From positions 992,001 to 1,056,000 of the forward strand of contig CAWIGG010000002.1 in NCBI GenBank assembly GCA_963835575.1: a stretch of 64,000 nt of DNA, read 5' to 3'. Of the stretch, positions 19,705 through 23,785 are shown one piece after another. The DNA comes from an uncultured Spirochaetota bacterium (GTDB lineage: Bacteria; Spirochaetota; Brevinematia; Brevinematales; JAOACQ01). Within the stretch, counting starts at the first letter, position 1; each line of letters starts with the position of its first letter. Under the pieces are notes generated by a model that did not search any database, was not told where the DNA came from, and saw nothing but the letters and a program-made list of their open reading frames with translations. The position numbers and the translations under genes were made by a program.

Positions 19705-21252
19705 TTAATGCCTGAAATGGCGGACGCCGGTAAAGACCATGGCGATCCGGTGTTCATCAGCCGCCTTGATGGAATCTTCGTCCTTTACAGAGCCGCCCGG
19801 CTGGATGATCGCGGTTATGCCGCTCTGGGCCGCGCTGTCGACGCTGTCGCGGAACGGGAAAAACGCGTCGGAGGACATCACGGAGCCTTTCGGGTCAAAA
19901 CCCGCTTCCTTCGCCTTGATGAGGGCCAATCGGGCGGAATCCACCCGCGACATCTGCCCGGCGCCGATGCCGATGGTCTGCTCGTTTTTAACATAAACAA
20001 TGGCGTTGGACTTGACGTATTTGCCTATTTTCCAGGCGAATTTCAGATCGCGCTCTTCCTCTTTAACCGGCTTTTTTTGCGTGACGATGTTCCATTTTTC
20101 CAGGGCCATTCCTGTATTGTCCCAATCCTGGACTAGCATCCCGTTCTCAATACGCCTGTAAGAAAGGCCGCGCTTCTTCCAATCCGAGCCGTTCAGCCTG
20201 ACGATCCGCAGGTTCTTTTTTGACTGGAGGATATTCAGAGCATCCTCTTCATAATCCGGCGCGATGATGATCTCATAAAAACGCTCCGCTATTTTTTTGG
20301 CCGTCACGGCGTCCATGAGTTTATTCACTCCGATAATGCCGCCGAAGGCCGATGCGCTGTCGCAGGCCAGGGCCCTGTCGTAGGATTGCTCAAGGGTCAT
20401 ACCCAGCGCAGCGCCGCATGGGTTCGTGTGCTTGATGATCACGGTAAAGGGGGAATCGTCCGCGAATTCCCTCAATATGTCCAGACAGCCGTCGGCGTCC
20501 ATAAAGTTATTGTAGGACATCTCCTTTCCCCAGACTATGGAGGCGTTTATCGTTGAAATATTATCGTCCACATAGCTCCTGTAAAGGCGGGCGTTCTGGT
20601 GCGGGTTTTCGCCGTAGCGCAGCGTCTGCTGCTGCTTTAATGGCAGGGCGAACTCCGCCGGAAACGGCCTCTTCGTGAGGCGGTTGAAGCAGGTGGAGAT
20701 AAGCCCGTCGTAATACGCCGTGTGGCTGAAGGCCTTCGCGGCGAGCTCCAGGCGCGTTTCGCGTGAAAGCTGTCCTTTTTCATCCAGCTCTTTCATCACT
20801 TTATCAAAATCATTATTATCAACAATAACCGCGACGTCCTGGTAATTTTTGGCGGCCGCGCGGATGAGCGCGACCCCGCCGATGTCGATTTGTTCGATGA
20901 TCTCCTCGAACTTCGCGTTTTTATTCTTGACCGTCTCTTCAAAAGGGTAGAGATTGACGACAATAAAGTCGATGGGGGGGATCTTGAGTTTTTCGATCTC
21001 TTCGAGATGGCTTTTCTTCGAGCGCATCGCGAGGATACCCGCGTGGATTACCGGATGGAGGGTCTTGACACGGCCTTCAAGTATTTCCGGAAAGCCCGTA
21101 GCGGAAGAGACTTCCGTTACGGCAATGCCCTTATCCTTTAAGTATTTATATGTCCCGCCGGTTGAGAGGACCTCGTAATCTTTTTTCTGGAGGTAGGAGG
21201 CCAGTTTTTCGATGCCTTCCTTATAATATGAACTGAAGAGCGCGCGTTTCAT
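19705..21252 (-). CDS. purH: Bifunctional AICAR transformylase/IMP cyclohydrolase
   Basis: [42 protein letters not shown]-terminal RHFRH. Confidence 0.98.
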
Positions 21253-21463
21253 AATGGCTCCTTTAAAATATTATTTTCGCTAAACCGCGAAGGGTATTTT
21301 GAGTAAAATCCGATTTGTAATGGATATAATTATATCATAAGAAATTGGATTTGTTAAGGAAGTTCAAGGAGAGATTTATTATTTCAATATGAATATTAAA
21401 ATGGAATAAAACCTCTTCCAGAAGAAGGGGGAAAGGCGGCACGCTGCGCTGTGCCACACAAGG

Positions 21464-21847
21464 ACATGTCCGTCGGCGATAAATATTGGCAGAGAGTAAA
21501 CTTTTCTGGACGCTGATATATAATCATTTTCTTTTTTATCTATGATAAAAGCACGCTTTAGCTGCGAGGGCTTGTTTTGCATCCGCTCCAGGCCACACAC
21601 GCGGAACTCACACACTCATTGTAAGTATTTTATAAAAGAATCAATCAATAAATCTGTCTTGATTCCAGAATTGCCGACAATGGGTGTGTTCAAACATTCC
21701 GTGCGTTCAAGCTGGCCTGTCGCGGGCAAAACTACGCCCTCTACGCCAATGCTTTTAAATTTCAAATCCTAAATTATCTGAGTGACGCATCCAGAAAAGT
21801 TTACTCTCTGCCACCAGCAGGAAGCGAACGCCGGCGGACGGAAATGT
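21464..21847. ncRNA. Candidate long rod-shaped structured RNA (unknown family)
   Basis: Seven or more nested helices, including a perfect 24-bp stem 21487-21510/21790-21813; no credible ORF. Confidence 0.45.
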
Positions 21848-22006
21848 AAAAAATAATAATAAATAAAAAGGAAATTAATAATAAAAATAACGGGCATCAT
21901 GTTTTACAGAACTATATGTCCGGTCTGCTCCGATAAAGAAGAGGACCCGGCGGGACGAAAACGAAGAAAAAAAATAAATAATAAATTAAAAAAAAATACA
22001 GAAAAC

Positions 22007-22035
22007 GTGATATATATACGATAATTAATTATAAT
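22007..22035 (+). promoter_or_regulatory. Putative sigma70 promoter with upstream A-tracts
   Basis: GTGATA-17 bp-TATAAT preceded by long A-tracts. Confidence 0.5.
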
Positions 22036-22059: not shown

Positions 22060-22209
22060 ATGTTTAACAGTAAAGCTGTAAGTAAGAAACCGGCGGCGAA
22101 AGTTTCAAAAGCCGTAGCCGGCAAAAAAGTTTCCAAACCCAAAGCCAAGGTTGTTAAGAAACCGGCAGCGAAAAAACCGGCGGCTAAAAAAACCGCAAAA
22201 AAGAAATAA
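22060..22209 (+). CDS. Histone H1-like Lys/Ala/Pro-rich small basic protein (49 aa; absent from the ORF track)
   Basis: AAGGAG RBS; MFNSKAVSKKPAAKVSKAVAGKKVSKPKAKVVKKPAAKKPAAKKTAKKK; 19 Lys and no acidic residues; own terminator. Confidence 0.85.
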   Translation: MFNSKAVSKKPAAKVSKAVAGKKVSKPKAKVVKKPAAKKPAAKKTAKKK

Positions 22210-22241: not shown

Positions 22242-22278
22242 GGCACCCTGGGTCTCAAGACTCAGGGTGTTTGCTTTT
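22242..22278 (+). terminator. Intrinsic terminator
   Basis: GCACCCTGGGTC-TCAA-GACTCAGGGTGT followed by TTGCTTTT. Confidence 0.7.
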
Positions 22279-22287
22279 GACGAGCAA

Positions 22288-22364
22288 TGTCGGGGGTTTA
22301 CGATATTTCTTTCTTTTCGAAAATAAAGAAATATCGTAAACCCCCGGCAGCCTGTAGGAAAAAA
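22288..22364. repeat. Long hairpin whose right arm recurs at 23635-23667
   Basis: CGGGGGTTTACGATATTTCTTT / AAAGAAATATCGTAAACCCCCG. Confidence 0.7.
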
Positions 22365-22516: not shown

Positions 22517-23014
22517 ATGAAAAAAACTAAAATCTATCTGGACACATCGGTTATCAACTTTCTTTTTGACGATGACGCTCCGGAAAAGAAGGATATTACT
22601 ATACATTTTTTTGATAAATATGTCCTTAATCACGTTTATGAAGTTTACATATCTCCGGTAGTAATAGATGCAATTTAGCGGACAAAAGATGATTCTGTCA
22701 GAAAGCTTTTAATGGACCAGATAAAAAAATATAATCTGACAATAATCGATATTGCGGTTGAAAGAAATAACATTGACGAATTGGCGGAATTATATATTGA
22801 AGAAAAAGTTATTCCCAGAAAGAAACTGGATGACGCGCTTCATATAGCTGTATCGACCGTGTTTGAAATGGATGTTCTTCTTTCCTGGAATTATAAACAT
22901 CTTGCGAATATCAATCGTGAGCGTAAGATTCTTGCGGTGAATTTTAATCAAGGGTATAATCAATTACTACGTATATGTACACCATTGGAGGTTATGGATG
23001 AAAAAGATGATTGA
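22517..23014 (+). pseudogene. PIN-domain (VapC-like) toxin with an in-frame amber stop
   Basis: MKKTKIYLDTSVI..; TAG at 22676-22678; the same frame continues to DALHIAVS..LLSWNYKHLAN..ICTPLEV. Confidence 0.85.
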
Positions 23015-23165: not shown

Positions 23166-23785
23166 ATTGTGCTGATTCAGGATAATAATAAACTTTGATT
23201 AACATATTAAAATTATGATAATAGAAGAAACCGCGGATGGGTATTTGACAGCACAGACAAGAATTTCTGTGATACCGCTGGTACAGCCGGAAAAGCCTGT
23301 CGGTAATTCCTGTATTAAAAAGGAATATTTAATCATAAATGAATAGAATATTATCCATAAAAAAAGCAATGCAAAATATCCGTTCCCGAGGCCATTTTCC
23401 CCTGGCCATAATCTGCACATCAAATATCTCAATATAAAGTCGTGTCATCCGCTATTATAATAGAAGAGAGGATGTACATGTTTTTGACAGGATGTCAAAA
23501 CCGCCGCATAAAGCTATGGACAGCGTAATAAGGCGGCTATTATATTAATGAATTGATTGTTAAAAGCCGGATAACACACATACAAACAATCCGACTACTT
23601 CAAATGAAAATGGCCTCGACCTGTTTTCTTTCTTTATCGTAAACCCCCGACAGCCTGTCGGAAAAAAAAGCCGTTATCCAATTACTATGAAATAGAAGAA
23701 TAAAATTATACAAAGAGCCTCTTCTATATTATAATTATACATCTTGATTAAAAAAATTTGTTATTTTATTTTAGGAGCAGTATAA

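Follow-up and report, generated by a model that had tools for sequence, protein, structure and literature searches.

The rod and its surroundings in the window

The window analysed here is a stretch of 64,000 nucleotides, and the genome to which it belongs is designated G000. A fold-back stretch of about 385 nt, referred to as the rod, lies at window positions 21460-21850 in the non-coding spacer beside purH, about 80 nt from the -35 box of that gene. Its other neighbour is an ORF for a 49-aa Lys/Ala-rich, histone-like protein (22060-22209, plus strand), which is preceded by a promoter-like site (22007-22035) and followed by a terminator-like hairpin (22242-22271). In a PIN-like gene at 22517-23014 (plus strand), codon 53 is followed by an in-frame stop that interrupts the gene, and its second part had no Pfam match. 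A near-perfect palindrome of 62 bp occupies 22288-22349 and recurs in part 1.3 kb further on, at 23635-23667; the rod copy at 908.7 kb of contig C4 has a similar unit ahead of it. A small hairpin module at 21890-21925, after the A-rich tail, resembles modules flanking other copies. The parts of the locus are as follows.

19705..21252, minus strand: purH (AICARFT/IMPCHase), adjacent to the element but no part of it; its promoter-like site spans 21357-21329
21438..21455, plus strand: leader mini-hairpin, the approximate left end; variant forms precede the other G000 copies
21468..21478, plus strand: left arm of H1, the GC-rich outer helix ('shell'); at other sites of the genome the same shell is found around different cargos, or empty
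21487..21513, plus strand: left arm of H2; subfamilies A and B differ in sequence here, with full compensation
21514..21546, plus strand: 5' AT-rich bubble; the segment is 41-43 nt in 9/9 copies, its sequence less conserved than the arms
21550..21622, plus strand: 5' arm of the family-wide core; motifs CTTG, GCTC, AACTC and TTG-AA are kept
21623..21676, plus strand: AT-rich apex without pairing in the consensus; 26/26 aligned cores have one, 53-63 nt long and 75% AT
21677..21756, plus strand: 3' arm of the core; motifs ACAA, YTCRRACA, TCRC and CTACG are kept
21757..21786, plus strand: 3' AT-rich bubble
21787..21839, plus strand: right arms of H2 and H1
21840..21890, plus strand: A-rich tail, common to 9/9 full copies and also to shells with other or no cargo

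The helices, from the outside inwards, are these.

21468-78/21829-39: outer helix H1, 11 bp with one G.T
21487-510/21790-813: long helix H2, 24/24 Watson-Crick, extendable to 27 nt at 96%
21547/21750: helix AAAAGCA/TGCTTTT
21566, 21574/21726, 21736: helix GAGGGC..GTTTTGC/GCAAAAC..GCCCTC
21589/21713: helix CAGGCCA/TGGCCTG
21601/21697: helix GCGGAA/TTCCGT
21610-22/21677-89: 13-bp helix with one G.T
21638/21659: apical helix GAATCAA/TTGATTC

All eight helices named in a preliminary description of this DNA were found exactly where it had placed them. Folding of 21460-21850 gave -151.6 kcal/mol (z -12.2) for the plus strand and -161.3 kcal/mol (z -11.8) for the minus strand, and 0/100 shuffles were equally good in either case. 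Read on the minus strand, the CTACG motif in the 3' arm of the core contains GTAG, located at the base of the inner stem. The predicted fold of the plus strand bears side hairpins in the AT-rich bubble, so the rod is not strictly unbranched, as it had been described. The apical helix exists in the window copy but is missing from the consensus of nine paralogues, in which an apex of about 55 nt is unpaired. The A-tracts said to follow the rod are indeed an A-rich stretch, but a part of the element, since they are common to all nine copies. When copies were compared by eye, reading frames of 76-78 aa within the rod were not kept between them, which speaks against a small ORF there; a promoter in the apex was likewise rejected, as the conserved TTG-AA had no conserved -10 with it.

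The rod had been thought to match no known RNA family, and the searches agreed: a covariance-model search over the rod gave only an overlapping 19.3-bit chance match to a snoRNA, and Rfam 15 had no match at 15 loci of homologues and shells. The suggested kinship with 6S RNA was contradicted. RF00013 had no match over the rod at E up to 10, and the true 6S RNA of the genome, which is single-copy, lies at G000:C2:1753226-1753420 (49.6 bits). 6S RNA is, like the rod, a long rod with a central AT-rich bubble, but the 6S RNAs of this family are G.U-rich and conserved in sequence, and the rod is neither. Furthermore, 6S RNA is expected to be vertically kept in one or two copies per genome, whereas the rod has nine copies here and 0-34 matches in relatives. 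No description of the rod family was found in the literature searched; the supplements of PMC2864571 and PMC5737381 hold motifs that are not all in Rfam and could include a relative.

Copies, range and junctions of the rod family

G000 carries nine full copies of 355-414 nt, which form subfamilies of five and four, plus several partial copies. Identity was 73-80% within a subfamily and 52-59% between the two, and no near-identical recent copies were present. The genes beside the copies are unrelated (an XRE regulator, DUF362, nucleotidyltransferase-HEPN, PIN, DUF2207, a CBM2 protein and others), and all four gene arrangements around them occur. Each copy consists of a leader mini-hairpin, H1, H2, AT-rich bubbles, a core with two 71-nt arms, an AT-rich apex of 54-56 nt and an A-rich tail. 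Three copies have small extra hairpins inserted in their arms, and the copies of subfamily A contain a TATAAT-like word in the 5' bubble. The orientation of 19 full and partial copies relative to local GC skew, which is weak, was with it in 8 and against it in 11. One DNA sequencing run revealed no joint across the rod, and no piece spanned it.

The shell, comprising leader, H1 and tail, was also found around two other cargo types or empty, in which case it is a single palindrome. The element is therefore modular. Shells with the two other structured cargos lie at G000:C6:164591-164916, C2:1501116-1501390 and C5:369500-369700. These cargos recall TwoAYGGAY-like hairpins; they had no Rfam match. 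At G000:C2:1356630-1357530, two empty shells oriented alike enclose about 800 bp with a putative small antitoxin and PIN-like gene pair. Two 3'-half copies (L046:2937-3069 and L047:2970-3122) have a DUF772 (IS1182-like) transposase gene some 400 bp away, and this IS may have cut them. Other repeats of the genome include a MITE-like element with an end 16-mer found 58 times, a CRISPR-like repeat found 52 times and an IS-like end found 34 times.

We then searched other genomes for the rod. When the window sequence was searched against 60 relatives by a BLAST-type method, only short chance matches came back, so that homologues had to be sought with a covariance model. The model of the core (R1) matched in 6 of the 11 other family genomes and in 0/23 other genomes of the order, and across 151 genomes of the phylum its matches were confined to family members. 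A broader model (R2) matched in 8 of these 11 genomes (34, 13, 9, 6, 5, 5, 1 and 1 matches) and in 0/31 other genomes of the class; four equal-scoring R2 matches in G004 sit in repeated cassettes. Among 151 genomes from the phylum of a Pedobacter record, a set that carried no positive control, R2 had no match. The rods of L094 (G004:C3:583000-602571) and L095 (G009:C17) lie inside repeated RHS-like/polymorphic cassettes and were probably duplicated along with them. A pattern scan of metagenomes yielded at least 120 loci, with eight true members among the loci listed; several of the eight were nearly identical to family copies, all had the usual apex size, and none was a gene-carrying form. A pattern scan of a collection of genome contigs gave five matches, all chance and with no rod structure, and viral contigs gave no match in one scan and eight chance matches in further ones.

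The rod had been proposed as a candidate new ncRNA in the purH spacer. This view is only partly supported: selection on structure was confirmed, but the rod is multi-copy and lineage-mobile, and it is not tied to purH, since the spacer upstream of purH has no rod in 8/8 relatives that have purH. Among 23 loci from relatives and metagenomes, both flanks were syntenic in G000 for only three, and at all three of these junctions the rod present in G001 or G003 was missing in G000. In a tree of 59 cores, which left out three G000 cores bearing insertions, the six G000 cores included formed a clade with support of 100/94, and 28 G002 cores formed a second with 85/93. This clustering by genome is the pattern of a repeat amplifying within lineages. 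Different rod subtypes lie directly after the stop codon of the same gene in G002:C2:1060408 (L283) and in G004 (L085), which may reflect either an old common insertion or one site used repeatedly. We consider it very probable that the rod family is a dispersed mobile repeat.

The junctions were scored in G002, the genome with 34 copies, after two atypical copies had been excluded; two more had no scorable left end. The left end in G002 is sharp and consists of a short G run (about 1-6 nt) followed by the outer stem. In 15 of the 30 scored copies it adjoined the stop codon of an ORF in the same orientation, at a distance of -1 to +3 nt, and three further left ends lay at most 2 nt from the -35 box of a divergent promoter-like site. 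No right end (0/31) was within 4 nt of a convergent stop, and the median distance to the nearest stop or -35 feature was 1.5 nt for the left end versus 99 nt for the right. The right end is blurred by a tail and neighbouring palindromic repeats, so the comparison of left with right is an imperfect control. Three copies begin within another copy that lacks its remainder, and other kinds of apex, as well as a form lacking one, also occur in G002. TAA, TAG and TGA are all represented among the abutting stops. In our reading of the C-terminal sequences, these stops are native gene ends; in one case this is supported by G004, which has the same C-terminus, and by a match of equal length in G000. 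Among the G000 copies the pattern is less marked, as only 4 of 17 shells or copies are at most 45 nt (about the leader length) from an upstream stop, and the window copy is not among them.

Covariation and strand asymmetry

The preliminary description had suggested selection on structure, and this was borne out by covariation. Compensatory (two-sided) changes were found at 39 of 90 consensus pairs among the nine paralogues, with 15 and 13 distinct ones inside the two subfamilies. In a model-fitted alignment of 26 cores from seven genomes, 53/54 pairs co-varied, a value reached by 0/500 shuffles, and 419 two-sided cells were counted versus 11 one-sided cells, the latter by manual tally. The 26 sequences were also aligned with MAFFT only, blind to structure; 38/39 pairs co-varied, with 296 two-sided versus 13 one-sided cells (manual tally). 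The bases conserved in sequence were mostly unpaired or helix-closing (CTTG, TC, AACTC, TTG-AA, ACAA, YTCRRACA, TCRC and CTAC). Specific bulge bases and the apex length were kept across the seven genomes, and the outer arms varied between genomes while the inner bulges were conserved.

G.U pairs made up 1-2% of the 1367 cells in the 26 cores, 19 on the plus strand and 33 on the minus strand. Five 6S RNAs of the family had G.U in about 59 of 295 cells (about 20%), with 22 one-sided and 14 two-sided cells by manual tally; this contrast is not like for like, as the rods are more diverged (column identity 59% vs 79%), the 6S set is small, and covariance-model searches are biased towards well-paired matches. 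When G.U was counted by folding only, the values were 4.0% (plus) and 5.9% (minus) for rods, 7.7% for tRNAs of the genome and 15.6% for 6S, placing the rods close to tRNAs and well below 6S. Three mid-helix G.U pairs had been taken to favour the plus strand, with two C.A pairs weakening the case. A plus-strand preference could not be upheld, given 13 G.U versus 19 A.C among the paralogues (p 0.38) and the 19 versus 33 cells above. The minus strand folded lower than the plus strand in 24/26 cores, was purine-richer in 23/26 and showed GC skew in 25/26. PMC5027507 reports the same strand asymmetry for attC sites, whose active form is folded ssDNA.

These near wobble-free, co-varying stems suggest that the rod likely acts as folded single-stranded DNA. 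A passage of PMC5737381 states that comparative methods cannot easily separate ssDNA motifs from RNA motifs, and we think it somewhat more likely than not that the pairing acts mainly as DNA. For the discovery of ncRNAs the rod is a caution: its very strong covariation arises from paralogous mobile copies, and it is told apart from a true rod-shaped RNA of the same organisms by its scarcity of G.U pairs.

Known systems and possible routes of spread

The rod was compared with known repeats and recombination sites. It resembles REP, REPIN and BIME repeats, as described in parts of PMC3116915, PMC8266576 and PMC3733652, in being non-coding, extragenic, dispersed and hairpin-forming in ssDNA with conserved bulges, and also in having a fixed-length spacer, in often lying flush with gene ends and in forming mosaic clusters. 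A conserved minus-strand GTAG at the 5' base of its inner stem may correspond to the one that GTAG-REPs carry at the base of an imperfect hairpin, but it is internal to a longer rod and is found on one arm only. The rod is a nested structure of 270-410 nt, whereas REPs are 20-60 nt units or simple doublets. The two arms do not repeat a single REP word, and the stem sequence is free, as 38/39 pairs vary. Copy number is low, there is no RAYT linkage, and the abutting stops are TAA, TAG and TGA rather than a TAG supplied by the tag. By analogy, the rod seems to work most like REP/REPIN/BIME repeats, with presumed recognition through its bulges, failing on doublet architecture and RAYT linkage.

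Integron attC sites lie just after a stop codon, and the rod copies of G002 often start right at one. Structure kept over sequence, extrahelical bases and a purine-rich bottom strand that folds better are further likenesses to attC (parts of PMC5027507). However, the attC R boxes RYYYAAC/GTTRRRY were found at the ends of 0/9 G000 and 0/34 G002 copies on either strand, and the rod exceeds attC sites several-fold in length, lies behind core genes instead of cassettes and does not occur in single-orientation arrays.

A mobiliser was sought, and none was found. Y1 transposase (PF01797) was detected in 2 of 7 R1-positive genomes and in four R1-negative ones, and reverse transcriptase (RT) in 3/12 family genomes, with seven RT genes in G000. 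G002, the richest genome with its 34 copies, had neither detected. Y2 transposase was found in 0/12 genomes, where the control genomes gave no signal either, and GIY-YIG genes were present in 12/12 and hence non-discriminating. No rod arm was near a Y1, RT or GIY-YIG gene in 47 loci, of which 15 were RT loci. According to sequence reading, the only mobile genes recurring in 39 stretches around copies were of the IS21 type.

Several routes by which the rods could have arisen and spread were weighed against this evidence. Selection might act on rods as RNA: they would be structured ncRNAs present in many copies, or 3' UTR elements by which transcripts are stabilised or terminated, and mobility would be of secondary importance. 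Internal-loop bases conserved amid strong covariation fit such a role, as do the TATAAT-like word of subfamily A and the G002 copies that start at the stop of a co-oriented gene, none having been scored in the reverse arrangement; stop abutment with fixed orientation is also compatible with an RNA 3' UTR. We consider selection as RNA unlikely, because G.U is nearly absent on either strand, unlike in 6S, with no wobble bias to the plus strand, because all four gene arrangements are present at lineage-specific sites with copy numbers from 0 to 34, because left ends also abut the -35 boxes of divergent promoters, outside those transcripts, and because Rfam gave no match. It is quite unlikely that rods need no dedicated enzyme, with template switching from arm to arm keeping the pairing and host recombination in palindrome-rich spacers spreading them. 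This would agree with the finding that none of the mobilisers searched (Y1, Y2, RT and GIY-YIG) tracks the family, with mosaic joins to other hairpin repeats, and with two-sided changes far exceeding one-sided ones, as arm-to-arm copying would yield. Such copying, however, should erase the bulges, but bulge bases and apex length are kept across seven genomes; moreover, the left ends are sharp and polar.

Spread via an RNA intermediate and reverse transcriptase, SINE- or retron-like, would account for Watson-Crick stems in cDNA, the variable G run at the left junctions of G002 and the A-rich right tail of G000, a genome with seven RT genes. This route is highly unlikely, given that RT was detected in only a quarter of the family genomes and not in G002, that G002 copies have no A tail and that no rod arm lies beside any of the 15 RT loci; the A tail is also alignable between copies and thus inherited. 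MITEs, including the ERIC/IRU-type rods, are non-autonomous, dispersed and fold-back. A classical MITE, whose terminal inverted repeats would come from a DDE insertion sequence, would fit the inverted terminal arms of H1, the dispersed copies, the many IS families in G000 and the empty shell, whose single palindrome is readable as an unoccupied target. The preliminary description had named multiple copies with target duplications as the sign of a MITE. The rod is multi-copy, but a direct repeat at a consistent position was absent from 9/9 G000 copies. The rod also lacks terminal repeats conserved across genomes, its outer arms being unconserved and its inner bulges conserved; its ends are asymmetric and polar, and none of 16 G000 shell right ends examined closes a transposase gene, and no IS with these ends was seen in G000. 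The chance that a classical MITE explains the rod is very slim, and this reading is largely refuted.

The rods occur in multiple copies at lineage-specific sites, with genome-specific expansions, Watson-Crick covariation around conserved bulges, exchangeable modules and polar junctions. Our preferred explanation, to which we give a probability of about 65%, is that the rod is a dispersed, non-coding, modular, non-autonomous hairpin repeat of one bacterial family, REPIN-like, likely folding as ssDNA and likely copied by a putative enzyme supplied in trans. Under this explanation, supercoiling or replication would melt the AT-rich apex and bubbles, and the purine-rich minus strand would fold. 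A protein may then recognise the conserved bulges rather than the stem sequence, so that stems could drift as long as pairing holds. Finally, the left end would be cut and joined again to DNA close by. Recurrent deletions at this end would consume the neighbouring spacer until DNA that cannot be lost is reached, which would place left ends on native stops or on the -35 boxes of divergent promoters; leftward deletion would also truncate older copies to the left. One such process would account for all three junction types, and we put this deletion ratchet forward tentatively, at less than even odds. It is doubtful that the rods constitute a new class, namely a polar, structure-encoded ssDNA mobile element of 270-410 nt that is read by its bulges like attC, has an exchangeable shell and apex, and is moved by a putative host or other enzyme, its left end trimming exactly to stops or -35 boxes and thereby replacing native terminators.

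The rod family bears on the question of how long palindromic repeats spread without a linked transposase, a gap also stated for CGTC repeats by Di Nocera et al. in part of PMC3733652. It offers a defined substrate with invariant bulges, one favoured strand and a sharp left end, and G002, with 34 copies and no detected Y1 or RT, suits the identification of the enzyme. The family would matter only modestly if it proved to be no more than a neutral REP-like repeat in an uncultured lineage.

Two further loci hold Y1- or RAYT-like sequences. At L058:229-3228 (G000:C5, Y1 match at 410121-410348), a PF01797 domain lies in frame within a 1208-aa restriction-modification-like frame. This frame is flanked by repeated short peptides resembling translated palindromic repeats, and G022 has a similar frame of 1183 aa. 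At L059:1453-2001 there is a RAYT-like gene of 182 aa, and a short palindromic repeat is apparently translated in frame both there and in the next gene.
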